This document shows, one piece after another, positions 10,191 through 21,348 of a stretch of 26,336 bases of DNA. This stretch comes from a virus, in the UHGV virus genome UHGV-0273073; one strand, written 5' to 3'. Both the position numbers and the translations under genes were made by a program. How positions within the stretch are numbered: the stretch's first letter is position 1; every line of letters begins with the position of its first letter. The notes under the pieces are model-generated. The model was given only the letters and a program-made list of their open reading frames with translations, did not search any database and was not told the origin of the DNA.

Positions 10191-10466
10191 ATGTCTGTAT
10201 ATACAACTGCAGAATTACTGGCATCGACCCAGCATCACTTTAAGTTCGATCCGCTGTTTCTGCGCCTGTTTTTCCGTGAAACCTATCCTTTCACCACGGA
10301 AAAAGTCTATCTCTCACAAATTCCGGGACTGGTAAACATGGCGCTGTACGTTTCGCCGATTGTTTCCGGTGAGGTTATCCGATCCCGTGGCGGCTCCACC
10401 TCTGAATTTACGCCGGGTTATGTCAAACCCAAGCACTTAGCATGGCTTTCTGAGGCTTTCGTGTAG
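10191..10466 (+). pseudogene. E: Major capsid protein E, 5' fragment: codons 1-82 (10191..10436) fused to 9 island-encoded codons then stop
   Basis: MSVYTTAELLASTQHHFKFDPLFLRLFFRETYPFTTEKVYLSQIPGLVNMALYVSPIVSGEVIRSRGGSTSEFTPGYVKPKH is lambda gpE N-terminus; homology ends exactly after His82, followed by LAWLSEAFV*. Confidence 0.92.
10426..10435. repeat. Left copy of 10-bp direct repeat AACCCAAGCA (putative attL core)
   Basis: Identical 10-mer at 20558..20567; both copies sit at the breakpoints of E homology. Confidence 0.8.
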
Positions 10467-10563
10467 TTGCTGGTTTTTACACTTAATCTTTTGATAATAA
10501 AGAATAAGTTTATCTGGCGCTTTCACTGGATTTTCCTCGTTATCTGTGTGTTGCAATCATCTC

Positions 10564-10583
10564 TGTATTGCAGCTTGTATTGC
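10564..10583. repeat. Arm-type direct repeats TGTATTGCA / TGTATTGC at 12-bp phasing (left arm, between attL core and int)
   Basis: The same 9-mer occurs three times at 12-bp phasing on the right arm (20449..20481). Confidence 0.65.
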
Positions 10584-10598
10584 TTTTTGGGGCTAAAA

Positions 10599-11834
10599 AT
10601 GGCTGGCGAGAACAAACTGAGCGACAAAGCACTTAAAGGATATCTGGGGAAACCCAGAGAAAAGCAGATCACCATTGCTGATGGAAAGGGGCTTTCTATT
10701 CGTGTGAGTACCAAGGGGGCTGTGAGCTTTGTTTTCTTCTACAGGTTAGCAGGTGGCCGGGCTGCTCCGGTCTGGCTAACGTTGGGTAAATATCCTGATA
10801 TGTCACTCAAACAGGCAAGAGAAAAGCGCGACGAGTGCCGTGGTTGGTTGGCTGACAAACGTGATCCGCGTATCCAGATTAAGATTCAGGCTGAAGAACG
10901 CTTAAAGCCGGTCACAGTGGAGGATGCACTAAATTACTGGTATGAAAATTACTGTAAGGTGCGTCGTAAAACTCATGCTGTAACGCTTGGCAGATTTCGA
11001 AAGCATATCTTTCCCTATATCGGTCATTTGCCCGTAAATGACACTCACCTATATGAATGGCTGGACTGTTTTGACCGAATTAAACGTAATGCACCAGTTA
11101 TGGCGGCGTATGTTTTTTCTGACACTAAATTAGCTCTTCGTTTTTGTCGGGTACGCCAGTACGCGACGTGTGATGCTTTAAAGGATTTGCGCATGAGTGA
11201 TGTGGGGCAGATTGCAGGTAAGCGGGATCGGGTTCTGGATGAAGCCGAACTGGGCCAGCTCTGGAAGGCAATTTTTGTCGAGCCTGATTTAAAACTAATG
11301 TCTGAATACACGCGAAAAATGTTTGTGCTTTGTACAGTATTTGGATGTCGAATGAGTGAAGCCCGATTATCAGAATGGAGCGAATGGGATCTAGAAAGTT
11401 GGGTTTGGACTGTACCAAAAGAACACTCAAAAACCGGTGTTGAAATCGTCAGACCAGTACCTGAAATTCTACGACAGTGGGTAACGGATGTTCACGAAGA
11501 GACAAAACATACTGGTTATGTGCTGGGAAGTCTGCGAATTAGAGAAAGCGTAAGCAAGATTGGGGGGAAAATCGGTAAACGTTTGGGCCATGAAAAACAA
11601 TGGTCACTACACGACCTTAGAAGAACGCTATCTACTCATCTAAGTGATCTCGGTGTTGAATTTTATGTAGTAGAACAACTGTTAGGCCATGCGCTACCTG
11701 GCGTGGCAGGTGTTTACAACCGGAGTAAGTTTATGGCTAAAAAACTGGATGCTCTGGAACTCTGGACTACATATCTCAATAGCATCGCAGGTGCTGATTC
11801 AAAAGTGACAATCCTCAAACAAAAGGCTGGTTAA
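10599..11834 (+). CDS. int: Tyrosine site-specific integrase, P4 family (N-terminal arm-binding DUF4102-like domain)
   Basis: ATG at 10599 (MAGENKLSDKALKGYLGKP…); catalytic-region motifs HDLRRT and GVYNRSK (Tyr); the track's TTG-initiated extension 10467..10598 covers the arm repeats and is unlikely to be coding. Confidence 0.92.
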   Translation: MAGENKLSDKALKGYLGKPREKQITIADGKGLSIRVSTKGAVSFVFFYRLAGGRAAPVWLTLGKYPDMSLKQAREKRDECRGWLADKRDPRIQIKIQAEERLKPVTVEDALNYWYENYCKVRRKTHAVTLGRFRKHIFPYIGHLPVNDTHLYEWLDCFDRIKRNAPVMAAYVFSDTKLALRFCRVRQYATCDALKDLRMSDVGQIAGKRDRVLDEAELGQLWKAIFVEPDLKLMSEYTRKMFVLCTVFGCRMSEARLSEWSEWDLESWVWTVPKEHSKTGVEIVRPVPEILRQWVTDVHEETKHTGYVLGSLRIRESVSKIGGKIGKRLGHEKQWSLHDLRRTLSTHLSDLGVEFYVVEQLLGHALPGVAGVYNRSKFMAKKLDALELWTTYLNSIAGADSKVTILKQKAG

Positions 11835-11835
11835 C

Positions 11836-12066
11836 ATGAAAAAAATGGCAATTGTTGATAAAAAGGGTCTGGAGTACATTCCTAACATTGACCGAATGAT
11901 CCGTGAGAAAGAATGTCGGGAGCTAACCACTCTTGCGAACAGCACACGCTGGAAGCTGGAGAAGGAAGGAAAATTTCCTAAGCGGATCAAGATTGGTTCC
12001 ACTGCTGTTGCATATCGTCTTTCAGAAGTGCAGGCATGGATTCGAGGTGAGTGGGAAACAACTTAA
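11836..12066 (+). CDS. AlpA-family HTH regulator / excisionase-like protein
   Basis: 76 aa; core RELTTLANSTRWKLEKEGKFPKRIKIGSTAVAYRLSEVQAWI fits the AlpA/Xis pattern; directly downstream of int as in P4-like elements and PICIs. Confidence 0.75.
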   Translation: MKKMAIVDKKGLEYIPNIDRMIREKECRELTTLANSTRWKLEKEGKFPKRIKIGSTAVAYRLSEVQAWIRGEWETT

Positions 12067-12082
12067 CTATTAGGTGGGCATT

Positions 12083-12904
12083 GTGGCTATATTTCATTAT
12101 ACAGATCTTTTTGGTTTGAAAGGTATATTAGACTCTAATTCTTTATGGGCTACAAACATATATTTCTTAAATGATAAAGAGGAGTCTAACCATGGATGTG
12201 AATGCTTTCGAAATACAATTAAAATAGTTGATGACAATATCATTCCAAAAGATAAGAAAACTATTTTGCTCAAGTCTCTTGACATGTATGAGAAAGGGAG
12301 GTTACAAAAAGAAAAAGGGATTGATAAACATGTTTATAGCATCTCTTTTTGTAAGGAAAACGATAAGTTAAGTCAGTGGAGAGGTTACGGAAATAAACAG
12401 GGTGTTTGCATTGAGTTTGATGCGGATGAACTTGTGAGCTTTTCTCAAAATATTTATTTAAATTGTGTTGCACATGATGTTATATATTCAAATAATAACG
12501 ATGTTACTAAGATGAGTAAGGAGTTGGGGGCGTTTTTTTCTTGTAATGGTATTAATATTAAAGAAAAGAATGATCATTTTGTAACAATGGCCTCTACGTA
12601 TCAATTTATATCTAAATACATCCCATTTTTTAAACATCCTAGTTTTATCGAAGAAAATGAATTTAGATTGGTATTTACTCCGCGCATACTAATACCAGAT
12701 GTGCAATTCAGAATAAATAATAATGGTGTCATCCCTTATATCATCATTGGTAATAAAGATCATAGGAAGTTACCAATTAAAAGTATTACTATTGGCCCGA
12801 CAAACGATTATGATTTCATTGAGGCTGGTATAAAAATGTTCTTGGATTCAAAAGGATTTAGTTCAGTGGAAATTAAATCCTCATCAATTCCATTCAGGGG
12901 GTAA
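12083..12904 (+). CDS. Cargo protein of unknown function, AT-rich (possibly DUF2971-like)
   Basis: ORF track 12074..12904; GTG at 12083 preceded by AGGTGG; codon usage and AT content clearly differ from flanking genes; motifs IYFLNDKEE and YSISFCKENDKLSQWRGYGNKQGVCIEF. Confidence 0.7.
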   Translation: MAIFHYTDLFGLKGILDSNSLWATNIYFLNDKEESNHGCECFRNTIKIVDDNIIPKDKKTILLKSLDMYEKGRLQKEKGIDKHVYSISFCKENDKLSQWRGYGNKQGVCIEFDADELVSFSQNIYLNCVAHDVIYSNNNDVTKMSKELGAFFSCNGINIKEKNDHFVTMASTYQFISKYIPFFKHPSFIEENEFRLVFTPRILIPDVQFRINNNGVIPYIIIGNKDHRKLPIKSITIGPTNDYDFIEAGIKMFLDSKGFSSVEIKSSSIPFRG

Positions 12905-12949
12905 GGATTAACACTTTTAATCTATGATGTTATAAAAATGGTGGATAAA

Positions 12950-12969
12950 GGCGACCAGAATTGGTCGCC
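12950..12969. terminator. Hairpin between convergent cargo genes (possible bidirectional terminator)
   Basis: GGCGACCA-GAAT-TGGTCGCC, 8-bp perfect stem. Confidence 0.45.
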
Positions 12970-13035
12970 AATGTGAGTATATAGTTAGCCTTAATCAGAA
13001 TACGAGGTTGTCGACTGATAGGCAATGTGAACAGT

Positions 13036-13392
13036 TCAATATTTAGGTGGTTCAACAAGAGCGTTTATCATTGCTCTCAAATTATCGCGAACACTTATCC
13101 AAGTCTGTTCTGCTCGTTCTAACTCATCAGTGTACAACTTTAATGTTTTATCTATGCCATATGTGGCTATTAAATTTATAGCTTCTTGTAACTTTTCGGG
13201 ATTATTCCTTCTTGGGGGAGTGAATATACCACGGATTTTTCCGGTAATTAAAGCTTTACGGTGTCTACATAGAATACCTTTACTTCCTGCTGGACAATTG
13301 CAAGTCATGATTAGCGAGCCAGAATCGTTTGATACAGTGACTATGTATACATCCAAACTACTGCTACTTGTTGCGAAGAATTCGTATTTCAT
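13036..13392 (-). CDS. Small SWIM-type zinc-finger protein (CxC-x8-CxH)
   Basis: 118 aa; TCNCPAGSKGILCRHRKAL; strong AAGGAG Shine-Dalgarno 7 nt upstream of the ATG on the minus strand. Confidence 0.7.
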   Translation of the reverse strand: MKYEFFATSSSSLDVYIVTVSNDSGSLIMTCNCPAGSKGILCRHRKALITGKIRGIFTPPRRNNPEKLQEAINLIATYGIDKTLKLYTDELERAEQTWISVRDNLRAMINALVEPPKY

Positions 13393-13419
13393 GTGTTAGC
13401 TCCTTGACTTCAATTACTC

Positions 13420-13551
13420 TTATCCTTTTGGTTCAATACCGCGCCGTAGCAGCTCTTTGCGCCCTAATTCTTTAAGCCAGTTGGCTAGGCTTATGCCGTC
13501 GCTCTGCGCTTCTTTGTCGAATTGCTCTTTTAGCTCTGGAGAAATTCGCAT
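13420..13551 (-). CDS. Ribbon-helix-helix (CopG/Arc-like) protein, start uncertain
   Basis: MRISPELKEQFDKEAQSDGISLANWLKELGRKELLRRGIEPKG, C-terminal part of track ORF 13420..13734; 27 nt upstream of the SWIM gene on the same strand. Confidence 0.55.
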   Translation of the reverse strand: MRISPELKEQFDKEAQSDGISLANWLKELGRKELLRRGIEPKG

Positions 13552-13946
13552 TCTGAATTGTGGAGATTGCCCATCACCCTTAGGACTTTTATCGCGTTTG
13601 ATTGTTGACAAGTGACCACCTATTGAATTAGCCTTTTTACTGTTAGGTGACCACCTTAACACGGAGGCACTTAAAAAAGCAAAGCCCGAAGGCGCTAGGA
13701 ACACCAACGGGCTTCTAACCACCAACGATAGCAACAGTATCGAGATAGCTATGAGAAATCATACCACACACCCGCAAGGGCGGGACCCGCACAACCTGAA
13801 TAAATACATCTGGCGTTTTATCGCCCTGAGCACCGCACAACCACGCGTAATACACATCGAGGCCGCCAGCGGACAGGAAGCCCGCCAACAATCCCCAACT
13901 GGCTGCGTGATGATATTCGCCGCCCGTATTCGTCAGGAGGTATGCC

Positions 13947-14559: not shown

Positions 14560-14859
14560 ATGGGAATGAAAAATACTGGTGTTAATGCCAGCGGCCCCGC
14601 TCGACCTGAATTTATGAACGGCGATATTTACCGCGATAAATACGGCGGCACGGTAACGATTAAAGGCGTGGCAGAACGGCGCATCACTTACCGCCGTGAG
14701 GGGTATAGCTATGACTGCGTGATGCCTGTTTATCAGTTCCGGCGTGATTTTTCCCTGGTATATGCCGCACCCCGCAGTAAGCCCACCAGCAGGGAAAAAG
14801 CGCGGGGAAACATCCAGAAAATGAAAAGCATGATTAACGCATTCAGGGGCAAAAAATGA
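14560..14859 (+). CDS. Hypothetical protein upstream of primase (operon member)
   Basis: 99 aa; stop overlaps the primase ATG (ATGA at 14856). Confidence 0.6.
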   Translation: MGMKNTGVNASGPARPEFMNGDIYRDKYGGTVTIKGVAERRITYRREGYSYDCVMPVYQFRRDFSLVYAAPRSKPTSREKARGNIQKMKSMINAFRGKK

Positions 14860-16607
14860 AACTGGCACCGAACTTAAAAAAACAGCCACGCGACAGACTG
14901 ACAGAGGTAATCATCTTTGCAGGTAGTGATGCGTGGAGCCATGCGAAAGAGTGGCAGGAATGGGCGGGTAAACATATTGCCGCCGACGATGTGCCGCCTG
15001 TCGTGCTGGCTGATGAGCAACTGAAAAACATCACCGATTACCGGATCATTGATGAAGATCGTCAGTGTGTGCGTGTTTACCGCGCAGGACATATCACAGA
15101 GCACAGCATGACGCAGATTGTTACGTTACTGGCTGTGGCTGGAGTGAAGACCGTACACGAATACGCGGGGATTACTGACACCAGCCCCGTGGATTTATCC
15201 GACCAGTTGCCGCGACTCAAAGAGGAATGCGAGCGTGGGGAAAGCCTGGTGCTTAATCTTCCGACGAAGCAAAAGGAGCAACTTTCACAGATGGCAGACA
15301 GTGAGCGGGCACAACTACTTGCCGATCGCTTTGATGGTGTTTGTGTTCATGCAGAAAGTGAAATCGTCCACGTATGGCGCGGCGGGGTATGGTGTCCGGT
15401 CAGCACAATGGAGCTGAGCCGCGAAATGGTGGCGATCTATTCAGAGCACAGGGCCACGTTCAGCAAACGCGTAATCAATAACGCCGTGGAAGCGTTAAAA
15501 GTTATTGCCGCCCCCATGGGGGAGCCGTCCGGTGATTTGCTACCGTTCACTAATGGTGTGCTTAATCTGAAAACGGGGGAATTTTCTCCGCACTCGCCGG
15601 AGCACTGGAGCACCACGCACAATGGTATTGAGTACACGCCACCAGTAGCAGGGGAAAACATCCGCGATAATGCGCCAAATTTCCATAAATGGCTTGAACA
15701 TGCTGCAGGAAAAGACCCGCGCAAGATGATGCGTATATGTGCCGCGTTATACATGATTATGGCGAACCGCTACGACTGGCAGATGTTCATTGAGGCCACC
15801 GGAGACGGGGGAAGCGGTAAGAGTACATTTACCCATATTGCCACCCTGCTTGCAGGCAAACAGAACACCGTAAGCGCAGAGATGACATCACTCGATGATG
15901 CAGGAGGGCGCGCGCAGGTTGTCGTGAGTCGTCTTATCGTCCTTGCCGATCAGCCGAAATATACGGGGGAAGGCACGGGCATCAAGAAAATCACGGGAGG
16001 CGATCCCGTTGAAATCAATCCGAAATATGAGAAGCGATTCACGACGATAATAAGGGCGGTGGTACTGGCAACCAATAACGACCCGATGATCTTTACCGAA
16101 CGGGCCGGAGGTGTGTCACGCCGTCGGGTGATTTTCCGGTTCGACAACATTGTAAGGGAGGACGAAAAAGACAAGGAATTACCGGAAAAGATAGCGGCAG
16201 AAATCCCCGTAATTATCCGCCGCTTGCTGGCTAACTTTGCTGACCCTGAAAAGGCAAGGGCTTTACTACTGGAACAGCGTGACGGTGATGAAGCTCTGGC
16301 AATAAAGCAGCAAACGGATCCAGTTGTTGAGCTTTGCGCGGCGCTTGAGTTTCTGGATGAAGCTCGTGGGCTAATGATGGGCGGTGGTGGTGACTCCGTG
16401 AAGTACACGACCAGAAACAGCCTTTACCGTGTCTATATGGCCTTCATGGCATACACAGGAAAGGGGAAATGTTTGAGCGTGAATGAGTTCGGAAAGGCTA
16501 TGAGGTCAGCGGCGAAAGTTTACGGATATGAATATATTACGCGAAAAGTTAAGGGAGTCACGCAGACCAACGCAACGACTACTGATGATTGCGATGCGTT
16601 TTTATAA
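14856..16607 (+). CDS. Replication primase/helicase (P4-alpha/PICI pri-rep-like, P-loop NTPase)
   Basis: 583 aa; Walker A GDGGSGKST; Walker B-like VLADQ; immediately followed by the iteron array. Confidence 0.85.
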   Translation: MKLAPNLKKQPRDRLTEVIIFAGSDAWSHAKEWQEWAGKHIAADDVPPVVLADEQLKNITDYRIIDEDRQCVRVYRAGHITEHSMTQIVTLLAVAGVKTVHEYAGITDTSPVDLSDQLPRLKEECERGESLVLNLPTKQKEQLSQMADSERAQLLADRFDGVCVHAESEIVHVWRGGVWCPVSTMELSREMVAIYSEHRATFSKRVINNAVEALKVIAAPMGEPSGDLLPFTNGVLNLKTGEFSPHSPEHWSTTHNGIEYTPPVAGENIRDNAPNFHKWLEHAAGKDPRKMMRICAALYMIMANRYDWQMFIEATGDGGSGKSTFTHIATLLAGKQNTVSAEMTSLDDAGGRAQVVVSRLIVLADQPKYTGEGTGIKKITGGDPVEINPKYEKRFTTIIRAVVLATNNDPMIFTERAGGVSRRRVIFRFDNIVREDEKDKELPEKIAAEIPVIIRRLLANFADPEKARALLLEQRDGDEALAIKQQTDPVVELCAALEFLDEARGLMMGGGGDSVKYTTRNSLYRVYMAFMAYTGKGKCLSVNEFGKAMRSAAKVYGYEYITRKVKGVTQTNATTTDDCDAFL

Positions 16608-16620
16608 AAAATGGCAATGG

Positions 16621-16850
16621 TTATCTACCTTGTCTACCTGACTGAAAGAAAATACTTTTATTTCAATGTATTAATGCAGGTAGATAACTATTTTTCACTG
16701 TCTACCTGTTATCTACCTTATCTACCCATTTTTGTAGACAGGTAAGGAGACGGGTAGAGATGAGGTAGACAGCTATTTGGGGCTGTCTACCTCCCTGAAA
16801 CCCGCGCCATTACTGGCCTGATAACTAATCAGGTAGACAAGGTAGACAAG
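16621..16850. repeat. Iteron-type replication origin: at least 12 copies of GTCTACC / GGTAGAC in both orientations plus an AT-rich spacer
   Basis: Copies at about 16623, 16632, 16678, 16701, 16711, 16720, 16734, 16753, 16764, 16785, 16831, 16841; AT-rich 16641..16676. Confidence 0.8.
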
Positions 16851-16896
16851 GTGGTGGTGCACAAAAAACTTTTTAAACGAGGGGGTAAAAATAAAA

Positions 16897-17643: not shown

Positions 17644-17817
17644 ATGCTACATAAATCCAGACCAAAGGGAGTGAAGATATTAACACTAATTATCCGCGCT
17701 GAAGTTGTCATCCCAAAACTTTATACAACATTGCACTCGGTTGCATGTATTCGCATGACAAATATCGGTGATAGCATATATCCACAATTATTTTTAATGA
17801 ATGCAAAGAGGATGCGT

Positions 17818-18858
17818 ATGGTTGATTTATATTCGCCTACCCAGCTTGTACAGGTGGTTAATGCTGTAGATGTACAAAAACAACTAAATGCGTTGTTTAC
17901 CAGTTTGTTTTTTACTCGCTCGGTAATGTTTGAATCGCGCGATATTATTCTTGATACAATCGACGATCCAAATATCCCAATTGCAGCGTTTTGTTCTCCT
18001 ATGGTGGGTAGTAAAGTTTCACGTGACGAAGGGTACGAATCAAAAACAATTCGTCCAGGCTATATGAAGCCGAAAAGCAGCATTGATCCAAATAAGTTAG
18101 CTGTGCGCCCTGCTGGTGTATCACCTGAGCAATACAATGCTTTTGGAGCGCGTAATATTAAAGTTAAACAGGCGATTGTAAATCAGGCTAAAGCTATTCG
18201 TGCACGTATTGAATGGCTTGCCGTTCAGGCAATCACAACGGGGAAAAATATCATTGAGGGCGATGGTATTGAACGTTATGAGCTGGACTGGAATATTAAA
18301 CCACAAAATATCATCACTCAGTCTGGCGGTGCTGAGTGGTCAGGTAAGGATAAAGAAACTTTTGATCCAAATGATGATATTGAGAGCTACGCAGAATTTA
18401 GTGAGGGCGTCACTAATATCATCATTATGGGCGGTAATGTATGGAAGAAATACCGTTCATTCAGAGCGATAAAAGAGGCTCTGGATACCCGTCGTGGTTC
18501 TAATTCCGAACTGGAAACGGCCCTTAAAGACCTTGGTGATTCGGTGAGTTTTAAAGGGTATATGGGCGATGTTGCGATTGTTGTATACAGCGGGCGTTAT
18601 ACCGACGAGGACGGAACTGAAAAACATTTCCTTGATCCTGATTTGATGGTGCTTGGCAATACGGCTCTTCAGGGGATTGTCGCCTATGGCGGTATTCAGG
18701 ATCCGGAGCTAATCCGAATGGGGCTGACTAAAGCCGAACTTGCACCGAAAAACTATATTGTGCCTGGTGATCCGGCTATTGAATATGTGCAGACACATTC
18801 AGCACCACAGCCAATACCGGCCCGCATCAATCGTTTTGTTACCGTTCGCATTGGCTAA
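17818..18858 (+). CDS. Island-encoded major capsid protein homolog (divergent gpE-like)
   Basis: 346 aa from ATG 17818 (AGAGG 6 nt upstream), inside track ORF 17644..18858. Blocks ITQSGGAEWSGKDKETFDPNDDIESYA and DTRRGSNSELETALKDLGDSVSFKGYMGDVAIVVYSG align with ITQSGGTEWSKRDKSTYDPTDDIEAYA and DTRRGSHSELETAVKDLGKAVSYKGMYGDVAIVVYSG of the resident E (20569..21348). Confidence 0.9.
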   Translation: MVDLYSPTQLVQVVNAVDVQKQLNALFTSLFFTRSVMFESRDIILDTIDDPNIPIAAFCSPMVGSKVSRDEGYESKTIRPGYMKPKSSIDPNKLAVRPAGVSPEQYNAFGARNIKVKQAIVNQAKAIRARIEWLAVQAITTGKNIIEGDGIERYELDWNIKPQNIITQSGGAEWSGKDKETFDPNDDIESYAEFSEGVTNIIIMGGNVWKKYRSFRAIKEALDTRRGSNSELETALKDLGDSVSFKGYMGDVAIVVYSGRYTDEDGTEKHFLDPDLMVLGNTALQGIVAYGGIQDPELIRMGLTKAELAPKNYIVPGDPAIEYVQTHSAPQPIPARINRFVTVRIG

Positions 18859-18867
18859 GGGGGAGCA

Positions 18868-19209
18868 ATGGCTACTCATTACACTGAACTCATGGCTGGC
18901 ACTGAAGCACTGGTGACTACGCTGGGGATATTTTCAGCTAATAAAGGGGTAATTCCTGCATTTACGCCACTGATGCAGGAAGATGCAACAGGTGCACTGG
19001 TGGTATGGGATGGTTCGAGCGTAGGTAAAGCGGTTTATGTTTCCGCTGTACAAATCGACACCGCGAAAAAAACACAGGCTCAGGTCTATAAGACAGGTGT
19101 CTTAAATGTTGATGCTCTGAACTGGCCTGAGTCTGTAAAAGAACTGTCAGTAAAGATTGCAGCGTTTGTTGGCTCAGGTATTTCTGTTCAGCCGCTGGCT
19201 CGTGTGTAA
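18868..19209 (+). CDS. Island-encoded head decoration protein homolog (divergent gpD-like)
   Basis: 113 aa; TPLMQEDATGALVVWDGSS…YKTGVLNVDALNWPES…AAFVGSGISV aligns with resident [20 protein letters not shown]…[16 protein letters not shown]…[11 protein letters not shown]. Confidence 0.8.
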   Translation: MATHYTELMAGTEALVTTLGIFSANKGVIPAFTPLMQEDATGALVVWDGSSVGKAVYVSAVQIDTAKKTQAQVYKTGVLNVDALNWPESVKELSVKIAAFVGSGISVQPLARV

Positions 19210-19629: not shown

Positions 19630-19838
19630 CGGGTCCTTTCCGGCGATCTGACAGGCTACGGGGCGTCAGGCGCGCGGATTTTCGCTATTTATGAAAATTT
19701 TCCGGTTTAAGGCGTTTCCGTTCTTCTTCGTCGTAACTTAATGTTTTTATTTAAAATACCCCCTGAAAAGAAAGGAAACGACAGGTGCTGAAAGCGAGCT
19801 TTTTGGCCTCTGTCGTTTCCTTTCTCGTTTTTTGTTCA
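19630..19838 (+). promoter_or_regulatory. Island cos-like packaging site: cosQ/cosB nearly identical to the prophage cos (4016..4223), divergent cosN-equivalent 12-mer GGGCGTCAGGCG at 19661..19672
   Basis: By-eye alignment: about 150 bp of the cosB arm differ by only a few substitutions; the cosN 12-mer differs at 5 of 12 positions; no terminase genes in the island. Confidence 0.85.
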
Positions 19839-20185
19839 ACAATTGCGCGGTAGCAACTCGCCTTTCTGCTGCTGGAACTTATCCGGCACGTTTCCAGTGA
19901 TATCTGTCAGACAGCAGGCAAACAGGAGACAACGCAGTCGGACAGCACGACCGCTGAAAATTACGCGCGTGTGGTGCTTGAGGTTATGCGCCGTGACGGT
20001 ATCGAGCTTAACGGCGTGGATATGTGCAACATACGCACCAGAGTTCTGGAGTTGTTGCCATATCGTCGCCGTTCCATGTAGCGAAGGGAGAGCGCGAAAA
20101 ACACTTACCAGTGGAAGAAGCAGGAGCGGTTACGGCGGTAACTTGCTGATATTCCCGATAACGCAAAATTGCGTTGGCTGGCAGA

Positions 20186-20404
20186 GTGCAAATTTGCACG
20201 ATGGTCTAACCCATTGATTCTTTCGAAAATCACCATTGGGGGATAACGGGGGAATAAGCCTAACCCATTGATTCTTCCACAATCCTCAATTTGAGGAGAG
20301 CGGAATTATTACATGGCTGGATCAGGACTCCTTGAATTCAAGGAGTTCTCCTGTGTGAAAATGAAATTACCCAAGTTGGTGGGTGAGTTGCAGATCTGCA
20401 ACTC
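20186..20404. promoter_or_regulatory. Cluster of four palindromes in the island right arm: 20186..20199, 20284..20296, 20328..20345, 20385..20404
   Basis: GTGCAAATTTGCAC (14 bp, perfect), CCTCAATTTGAGG (imperfect), CTCCTTGAATTCAAGGAG (18 bp, perfect), GAGTTGCAGATCTGCAACTC (20 bp, perfect). Confidence 0.6.
20206..20276. repeat. Two copies of the 17-mer CTAACCCATTGATTCTT (20206..20222, 20260..20276), resembling the att core (AACCCA…)
   Basis: Exact direct repeat; shares AACCCA with the core AACCCAAGCA. Confidence 0.6.
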
Positions 20405-20448
20405 GGCTATGAAACTTAATAATCGAACAGCATGTAAATTCATTTCTG

Positions 20449-20481
20449 TGTATTGCAGCATGTATTGCAGCATGTATTGCA
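20449..20481. repeat. Three phased copies of TGTATTGCA (12-bp period), right-arm arm-type sites
   Basis: 20449, 20461, 20473; the same motif occurs twice on the left arm (10564..10583). Confidence 0.65.
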
Positions 20482-20557
20482 ACATAGTCATTCTGGTAGA
20501 GATTATGCTCTATTTTTCCTCTTATATCATTCACATACTTACGTCATTGACTCATGT

Positions 20558-20567
20558 AACCCAAGCA
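20558..20567. repeat. Right copy of 10-bp direct repeat AACCCAAGCA (putative attR core)
   Basis: Identical to 10426..10435; E homology resumes 1 nt after it. Confidence 0.8.
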
Positions 20568-20568
20568 T

Positions 20569-21348
20569 GAGGTGAATCCGCAGATGACCCTGCGTCGCCT
20601 GCCGGATGAAGATCCGCAGAACCTGGCTGACCCGGCTTACCGTCGTCGCCGTATTATTCGGCAGAATATGCTGGATGAAAATCTGGCGATTGCCCAGGTC
20701 GAAGAGATGCAGGCAGTTTCTGCCGTGCTTAAGGGCAAATACACCATGACCGGTGAAGCCTTCGATCCGGTTGAGGTGGATATGGGCCGCAGTGCGGCGA
20801 ATAACATCACGCAGTCCGGCGGCACAGAGTGGAGCAAGCGTGACAAGTCCACGTATGACCCGACCGACGATATCGAAGCCTACGCGCTGAACGCCAGCGG
20901 TGTGGTGAATATCATCGTGTTTGATCCGAAAGGCTGGGCGCTGTTCCGTTCCTTCAAGGCCGTCAAGGAGAAGCTGGATACCCGTCGCGGCTCTCATTCC
21001 GAGCTGGAGACAGCGGTAAAAGACCTGGGCAAAGCGGTGTCTTATAAGGGAATGTATGGCGATGTGGCCATCGTCGTGTATTCCGGACAGTACGTGGAAA
21101 ACGGCGTCAAAAAGAACTTCCTGCCGGACAACACGATGGTGCTGGGGAACACTCAGGCACGCGGTCTGCGCACCTATGGTTGCATTCAGGATGCGGACGC
21201 ACAGCGCGAAGGCATTAACGCCTCTGCCCGTTACCCGAAAAACTGGGTGACCACCGGCGACCCGGCGCGTGAGTTCACCATGATTCAGTCAGCACCGCTG
21301 ATGCTGCTGGCTGACCCTGATGAGTTCGTGTCCGTTCAACTGGCGTAA
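20569..21348 (+). pseudogene. E: Major capsid protein E, 3' portion (codons 83-341), separated from its 5' part by the island
   Basis: Frame reads TAA-P-K-H-EVNPQMTLRRLPDEDPQNL… through the normal C-terminus …DPDEFVSVQLA; 82 + 259 residues = 341 as in lambda gpE; an in-frame TAA (20557..20559) lies just upstream. Confidence 0.92.

Follow-up and report, generated by a model that had tools for sequence, protein, structure and literature searches.

The repeated boxes with the 8-mer TGTATTGC on the two arms of a satellite island are probably arm-type sites bound by the satellite's own integrase (Int), a member of the P4 family, as judged from their layout, their conservation and their covariation with the N-terminal domain of that enzyme. 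The island lies in a stretch of 26,336 nucleotides of viral DNA from the genome UHGV-0273073, which was analysed as a whole and is referred to here as the window. The motif, its layout and the arm-site hypothesis have been known since 2023, and their finding in the window adds little by itself. In that study, an '11capE' helper-embedded PICI (HE-PICI) was found to excise precisely after induction, 201 islands were mapped at E:Phage_cap_E:80 and another 290 at 13 other late-gene sites, and a doubled motif, tgTGTATTGCantgTGTATTGCa, was described 81 ± 2 bp upstream of the attP centre together with a second copy in the same orientation 132 ± 2 bp downstream of it (Tommasini, Mageeney & Williams, 2023, NAR Genom Bioinform, PMC10111431). 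The integrase arm domain, AlpA or an unknown protein were listed as candidate binders and the choice was left open there; in the later literature that was searched, no paper settling the binder of the motif was found. What is added here is a computational answer to this question, which points to the Int arm domain and not to AlpA.

The island and its repeat boxes

The window contains an island of about 10.1 kb that precisely splits a lambda-like major capsid gene E, with a 10-bp identity block at both junctions (Table 1). The matches to the two parts of the Phage_cap_E profile are carried by the open reading frames at 10191-10466 and 20572-21348. The identity between attL and attR amounts to 10 bp in the window and to 7 bp (AGCCAAA / AACCAAA) in relatives from Kosakonia and Cedecea (L003, L004), so the overlap is probably 7 bp. 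The identity block tracks the synonymous allele of the helper's E gene, being AACCCAAGCA in the window and AGCCGAAGCA in other E. coli. In its insertion site, gene order and att motif, the island is an '11capE'-type HE-PICI of the group E:Phage_cap_E:80. It is inserted in a late gene of the helper prophage, with int, alpA and the primase gene on the same strand as E; its genes follow the order int, alpA, variable zone, primase/ori and late genes (capsid), and the doubled TGTATTGC motif stands about -81 and +132 bp from the attP centre. In its relatives, the island is bordered by lambda-like head and tail genes. Islands with an int of at least 95% DNA identity to that of the window occur in about 177 of 5,426 complete E. 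coli genomes, while 26 E. coli genomes have at least 80% of the island, and those examined have a split capsid gene E. The preliminary description had proposed a functional site-specific recombination module rather than an arbitrary insertion. This is borne out by the P4-type integrase with an arm domain that adjoins the left repeats, by the precise split of E and by the precise excision of a like '11capE' element, matched by insertion site, gene order and motif (PMC10111431). The boxes mark the integration/excision module of a satellite that exerts control over its helper by interrupting the latter's capsid gene.

The rest of the island holds several features of its own. Its further genes encode an SSB, homologues of capsid E and decoration protein D, and a second AlpA-like protein. 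A cargo zone of low GC content (0.32-0.40) at 12074-13734 encodes DUF2971, SWIM and HicB-like proteins; related islands have Abi, TIR or DUF262 genes in its place, and the zone looks like a variable defence hotspot. An iteron cluster at 16616-16852 (TTATCTACC / AGGTAGACA, direct and inverted) lies directly downstream of the primase gene and is likely the replication origin of the satellite. The possibility that the arm boxes are replication-origin iterons was rejected, as the iterons of this cluster (GGTAGACA/TTATCTACC) differ from them in sequence and adjoin the primase gene. The stretch at 19737-19825, which we take to be lambda cos-like, contains a 25-nt inverted repeat at 19769-19825, and a third piece of the island query finds its match in the nu1/cos region of lambda-type phages. 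A 124-aa open reading frame at 19843-20217 has no Pfam match, and relatives have a 180-aa 'terminase small subunit' at this place. The following 54-bp direct repeat (20206-20303, 75% identity) has an IHF consensus, AATCAATGGGTTA, in each unit, and a 43-bp stretch that overlaps it is 100% identical to part of the KilAC antirepressor genes of other E. coli. The island's homologue of capsid E (Phage_cap_E, 2.4e-41) and its head-decoration D homologue lie at 17644-19209; such satellite homologues were noted, with no function given, in PMC10111431.

A pattern scan of the window places the exact 9-mer TGTATTGCA three times on the right arm, at 20449, 20461 and 20473, as the preliminary description had it, and Tandem Repeats Finder calls the same array at 20449-20485 (period 12, 3.1 copies, 96% matches). 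On the left arm, both reported copies are present at the 12-bp period. The one at 10564 is exact, and the one at 10576 reads TGTATTGCT, which differs in the ninth base (8/9 to TGTATTGCA) and is exact for the 8-mer TGTATTGC. All five arm copies have the same orientation, and the distances of roughly 80-140 bp inside the 10-bp core that had been given for them were measured as 77 bp on the right and 129-141 bp on the left. The left pair begins at 10562 if its 2-nt prefix is included and ends 14 nt 5' of the int ATG; the core centres lie at about 10429-10430 and 20561-20562. For the 8-mer, six occurrences were counted in the window (1.21 expected), and no shuffle out of 100 has as many; five of the six are the co-oriented arm copies. 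When up to one mismatch is allowed, the window contains 9 matches to the 9-mer where 7.7 are expected, which is no enrichment, and thus only the exact 8-mer and its clustering are informative. The count against shuffles, the co-orientation and a match of 22/24 between the two arms (10560-10583 and 20445-20468) together indicate that the repeats are real and not a product of chance.

Other signals on the left arm are weaker. The degenerate box TGTGTTGCA, which was not among the copies of the preliminary description, may be a weak third P' arm site. The IHF-consensus match between core and left pair is the sole one in this arm; it is conserved only partly among relatives and is for that reason treated as a candidate. 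A promoter scan of the left arm returned one weak sigma-70-like site at 10476-10505, and a specific regulatory model built on it was rejected because the site is too weak.

Table 1. Positions of the features discussed (window coordinates).
Feature	Position	Strand	Remark
Helper prophage major capsid gene E, 5' part	10191..10435	+	Pfam Phage_cap_E profile positions 1-78
attL copy of identity block AACCCAAGCA	10426..10435	+	Probable 7-bp overlap 10426-10432
IHF-consensus match TATCAAAAGATTA between core and left pair	10484..10496	-	Candidate bending site
Degenerate left-arm box TGTGTTGCA	10547..10555	+	17 bp upstream of left pair
Left-arm pair (P' arm, attL), TGTATTGCA-GCT-TGTATTGCT	10564..10584	+	Start ~132 bp from crossover centre
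int, P4-type heterobivalent tyrosine integrase, 411 aa	10599..11834	+	Pfam Arm-DNA-bind_3 3.7e-19, Phage_integrase 4.2e-17
alpA, 76-aa AlpA-family regulator, candidate excisionase	11836..12066	+	Pfam Phage_AlpA 3e-15
D5-type primase gene	14856-16607	+	Followed by iterons
Extra distal 12-bp unit TGTATTGCAGCA on right arm	20449..20460	+	Tandem duplication giving three copies
Canonical right-arm pair (P arm, attR), TGTATTGCA-GCA-TGTATTGCA	20461..20481	+	3' end ~81 bp from crossover centre
attR copy of identity block AACCCAAGCA	20558..20567	+	Probable 7-bp overlap 20558-20564
Helper capsid gene E, 3' part	20558..21348	+	Pfam Phage_cap_E profile positions 94-328

Conservation and copy number among helper-embedded islands

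The doubled motif published for HE-PICIs (PMC10111431) and that of the window agree in sequence, orientation, the -81/+132 distances, island type and lambda-like capsid site, and differ in that the published right arm has two copies and the window's has three. Since the right pair ends about 81 bp and the left pair starts about 132 bp from the centre, the register of the window is canonical. An int search of genome contigs gave three loci only, and the diversity was accordingly taken from IMG/VR and E. coli genomes. The other HE-PICI loci come from E. coli, Kosakonia, Cedecea and IMG/VR contigs; each arm visible in them has exactly two co-oriented copies 12 bp apart, and no opposite-strand copies were found in the arms of the loci collected. 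Two copies per arm are hence the family norm, and the three copies that had been taken as typical are not. A three-copy right arm was found neither elsewhere among the HE-PICI loci examined nor in the 5,426 complete E. coli genomes, where the best full-length match to the 171-bp three-copy query spans 159 bp at 91.8% and is thus 12 bp shorter. From this it follows that the unit at 20449-20460 is a rare 12-bp duplication. Single extra copies, both exact, were seen in two further islands: one 30 bp int-proximal of the left pair in a portal-site island (L008 12973), and one abutting the core on the right arm of a ClpP/capsid-site island (L007 22970).

The boxes are conserved beyond what surrounds them. 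In a comparison of 44 distinct right arms, conservation of 95% or more is confined to the columns of the two boxes. The left pair does not differ among relatives with an Int of 83-100% identity, and in those with an Int of 83-89% identity the arm flanks have strongly diverged, with the pairs exact and their spacing unchanged. In HE-PICIs at terminase, ClpP/capsid fusion and portal genes, where Int is about 50% identical overall, the pair is kept upstream of int, and the right-arm pair is kept too wherever the right end falls within the fetched stretch. The GTTGC part of the degenerate box TGTGTTGCA is at least 95% conserved in 37 distinct HE-PICI left arms; this half-site is absent in L006 and L008, from the terminase-site and portal-site groups. 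The repeats are found on both attP arms at fixed distances from the core and are distinct in sequence from the core-type sites, as is expected of arm-type sites.

These observations bear on a further reading, in which the repeats are non-functional slippage products or a chance likeness of the island ends. The third copy in the window shows that slippage does occur here. Against this stand the shuffles, none of which reaches the observed count, the exact motif at a fixed distance despite diverged flanks and an Int only about 50% identical, and the occurrence of the same architecture in P4, and we regard this explanation as hardly credible.

Covariation of the motif with the integrase N-terminus

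The integrase of the window has a separate N-terminal arm-DNA-binding domain of about residues 1-98 (10599-10892), which is recognized by the Pfam family PF13356 (3.7e-19), by structural homologues and by an AlphaFold2 model. Residues 17-98 align with the solved integrase N-terminal domains 3JTZ and 3JU0 (E 2e-5 and 1.6e-4), presumably the domains by which the HPI and HAI7 integrases bind arm-type sites; identity to these is low, although the predicted strand-strand-strand-strand-helix order fits. To our knowledge, the DNA sites of these integrases are not related to TGTATTGC. In the AlphaFold2 model of Int (mean pLDDT 85.6), four strands (24-29, 32-36, 42-48 and 58-65) are followed by a helix (70-85). 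The candidate catalytic residues R251, K278, H338, R341, H364 and Y373 are invariant. Q23, F44 and W59, located within predicted strands or beside them, do not vary among HE-PICIs and are found in none of the other motif classes. One Int homologue on record (P0004, 81% identity over 77% of the query) combines the Pfam families Phage_Nu1 and Phage_integrase, probably because an HE-PICI has inserted in nu1 and the gene was called across the junction as one fusion.

The comparison that separates the candidate binders comes from PICIs at the fis site, which have an Int of about 50% identity. They have been stated to lack the motif (PMC10111431), which, as far as the sequences indicate, is true of the exact motif and not of the architecture. 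In the fis islands, a tandem pair with a period of exactly 12 bp stands upstream of int, in most at a distance of 30-60 bp and in a few loci with extra sequence before int at about 130-230 bp, and a second, co-oriented pair lies about 80 bp beyond the core on the other side. Their motifs are six others than TGTATTGC, namely TGTATCAC, TGTAGTCA, TGCAGTCA, TGTATAAA, TGGGGTAC and TGGGGCAC. Wherever both arms are visible (classes A, B, D, E and F), they share one motif; in classes C and G, one arm only is visible. An exact-pattern scan confirmed both arms of class F pairs in two contigs and gave one arm per contig for class G pairs, most other matches to the latter being unrelated G-rich DNA.

Covariation was assessed on 82 distinct sets of an Int N-terminus, an AlpA and a motif class, spanning seven motif classes, by comparing single-linkage clusters at 70% identity with motif class (adjusted Rand index, ARI) and by the homogeneity of clusters at 90% identity. 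Residues 1-62 of Int gave an ARI of 0.91 for all elements and 0.87 for fis elements only, with a homogeneity of 1.00 in both. For Int from residue 101 to the end, the ARI fell to 0.29 and 0.00 (homogeneity 0.97 and 0.95), and between-class identity reached 94%. AlpA was intermediate, with an ARI of 0.76 and 0.45 and a homogeneity of 0.84 and 0.70. Over Int residues 1-100, the top between-class identity is 56-72%, except for the classes TGTAGTCA and TGCAGTCA, one base apart, with 89%. The separation is imperfect for class A, where the minimum identity among N-domains within the class is 59% and the maximum to other classes 61%. At the level of sequence, then, motif class follows the first ~60 residues of Int, which correspond to the beta-sheet of the arm domain, and follows neither AlpA nor the rest of Int. 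This can be seen in a single pair of islands, L154 and L157. From about residue 62 to at least residue 130 the two Int proteins do not differ (94% identity over 101-end), and the AlpA domains are identical. Residues 1-60 of Int, by contrast, share only about 50% identity, and L154 has the motif TGGGGTAC where L157 has TGTATAAA. The site sequence accordingly co-varies with the Int arm-binding domain, as arm sites should.

The same data weigh on the alternative that the boxes are AlpA sites, with AlpA, as excisionase and transcription activator of the satellite, oligomerising on the phased repeats, bending the arms and controlling the int-alpA promoter. The left pair does lie immediately upstream of int-alpA, and the Vis boxes of P4 lie between int and the core. 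AlpA is moreover among the candidate binders listed in PMC10111431, and direct repeats about one helical turn apart, which the 12-bp phased boxes resemble, are also typical of the sites of excisionases and other recombination directionality factors (PMC7498355). The exact 12-bp period does not discriminate between the two, however, because tandem arm-type sites share it. What does discriminate is that the motif fails to co-vary with AlpA. AlpA domains that are 100% identical occur with TGTATAAA, TGGGGTAC and TGGGGCAC, and those with TGTATCAC, TGTAGTCA and TGCAGTCA are 91-94% identical. Conversely, AlpA identity drops to 41% within the HE-PICIs with the motif unchanged, even though the segment that we take, from other members of the family, to be the recognition helix goes from ANSTRWKLE to GRRHRSLLE. 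The sole HE-specific invariant residues of AlpA, G71 and W73, sit in its C-terminal tail, and symmetric pairs on both arms are unusual for excisionase-type factors. The arm-site reading is thus favoured over that of a recombination directionality factor because the motif tracks the Int N-domain and not AlpA, and a role of the boxes as AlpA sites appears improbable.

A third protein could also be considered, in that the pairs might act independently of Int, as operators or docking sites of some other DNA binder, either a nucleoid protein of the host or a further product of the island. The islands are mosaics, several small function-unassigned open reading frames vary between classes, and an unknown protein was mentioned in PMC10111431. 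A host protein, though, cannot account for seven motif classes where the host families and the fis target are shared; of the three sequences compared (the N-terminal region of Int, the remainder of Int, AlpA), the first alone partitions with motif class; and the right-arm pair has no downstream island gene that an operator could regulate. Such a binder is quite improbable. Whole-island DNA comparison of class-discordant pairs, in which the mosaicism was seen, can for this very reason exclude only AlpA and the C-terminal part of Int.

Part of the covariation could reflect linkage within one recombination patch instead of recognition, since the int-proximal pair lies less than 60 bp from the 5' end of int and both pairs fall within about 300 bp when the element is circular. 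Two observations run counter to linkage: classes E, F and G have the backbone immediately 5' of the pair in common but differ in the boxes, and the distal pair changes in concert with the proximal one.

The DNA around the boxes shows patterns of its own. The backbone of the P' arm tracks AlpA type, with classes E, F and G sharing an AlpA and the block CTGTATATTGTTCCAGTG..TTGTTTATGC (L113, L150, L109), and classes B, C and D another common AlpA type and TGTTC(A/G)T repeats (L167, L100, L092). These backbone blocks between core and pair are candidate AlpA boxes, at the place where the Vis boxes lie in P4. In fis islands of the TGGGGCAC class (L104, L109, L161), an insertion of about 180 bp separates the arm pair from int; it carries three copies of GTTGTTCCA and three inverted copies of TGGAACAA around an AT-rich stretch, an iteron-like arrangement about 60-180 bp upstream of int.

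Proposed arm-site model and comparison with known systems

An attP with integrase arm sites, split by integration, was the layout originally suggested for these repeats, and it is supported by the arrangement of the boxes, their conservation, the likeness to P4 and the N-domain covariation, all of them comparative lines of evidence. In the proposed mechanism, the crossover region of the excised circle would have the right-arm pair at about -81 bp and the left-arm pair at about +132 bp. Each Int protomer would dock on one box with its N-terminal beta-sheet domain (residues ~1-65), while the core-binding and catalytic domains of the same protomers would hold the core half-sites of attP and of the helper's E target, such that four boxes may serve the four protomers of the recombining tetramer. 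Host bending proteins, possibly at the candidate IHF site, would fold the arms back. Integration would then leave one pair in attR and the other in attL. The third right-arm box is taken as a 12-bp slippage duplication added distally, which leaves the canonical pair in register. Int bound to the left pair would probably damp its own expression, given that this pair ends so close to the int start codon, and autoregulation is a reasonable expectation in view of P4, where Int reportedly represses its own promoter (PMC7286903).

The two-plus-two architecture at 12 bp, with varied motifs, is general in this clade of P4-related integrases, and at least seven distinct pairings of motif and N-domain occur among satellites that share the core target, the core-binding and catalytic domains and even AlpA. 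It is about an even chance that the tandem pairs of the two arms, together with about the first 60 Int residues, constitute an exchangeable specificity cassette, swapped by recombination at about codon 62. If so, orthogonal arm codes could stop cross-reaction between co-resident or tandem satellites, and between a satellite and the helper in which it is nested. There would then be a natural set of programmable pairs of arm site and arm domain, in which the three-box arm of the window would be a natural variant relevant to site stoichiometry. Should the Int arm domain indeed read the motif, a simple recognition code for this domain of P4-type integrases would result, as would an explanation of how many related satellites share hosts and targets without interference.

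Phage lambda provides the classical case of a heterobivalent Int, whose N-domain binds repeats on both attP arms away from the core, with bending of the IHF type. Its arm sites P1, P2 and P'1-P'3 are conceptually alike to those of the window but differ in number (2+3), orientation and consensus. The N-domain of lambda Int belongs to a different Pfam family, and no sequence relationship was found between window Int and lambda Int. The sites of excisionases (Xis/Apl/Vis/TorI/AlpA) are direct repeats about one helical turn apart in the att arms, as here; the motif of the window is unlike them in being symmetric on both arms and in not tracking AlpA.

The closest parallel is P4. In its GenBank record (NC_001609), 12-bp units of an 'attP arm sequence repeat' are annotated as tandem pairs on both sides of the core, the distal pair being GTGGGGGCACAA/AAGGGGGCATAT and the proximal pair, which ends 15 nt before the int ATG, TTGGGGGCATAA/TTGGGGGCATCT. 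The P4 Int N-domain is about 35% identical to that of the window. A closest relationship of P4 Int to the G-rich motif classes was considered and rejected, as identity is 39% and 32% to the two class F sequences and 26-35% to the rest; the P4 N-domain is not clearly closest to these classes, and no recognition code can therefore be claimed from it. P4 also differs from the window in its GGGGGCA-type motif, in the distances of its pairs from the core centre (about 64 bp for the distal and 122 bp for the proximal pair), in an additional inverted copy over the int start and in integration into a tRNA-Leu gene and not a phage gene. Both systems nonetheless have co-oriented tandem 12-bp pairs, an int-proximal pair near the int ATG and an integrase of the same family with an Arm-DNA-bind_3-type N-domain. 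Since these pairs are annotated as arm repeats in P4, the layout of the HE-PICIs is that of a P4-type attP with another motif.
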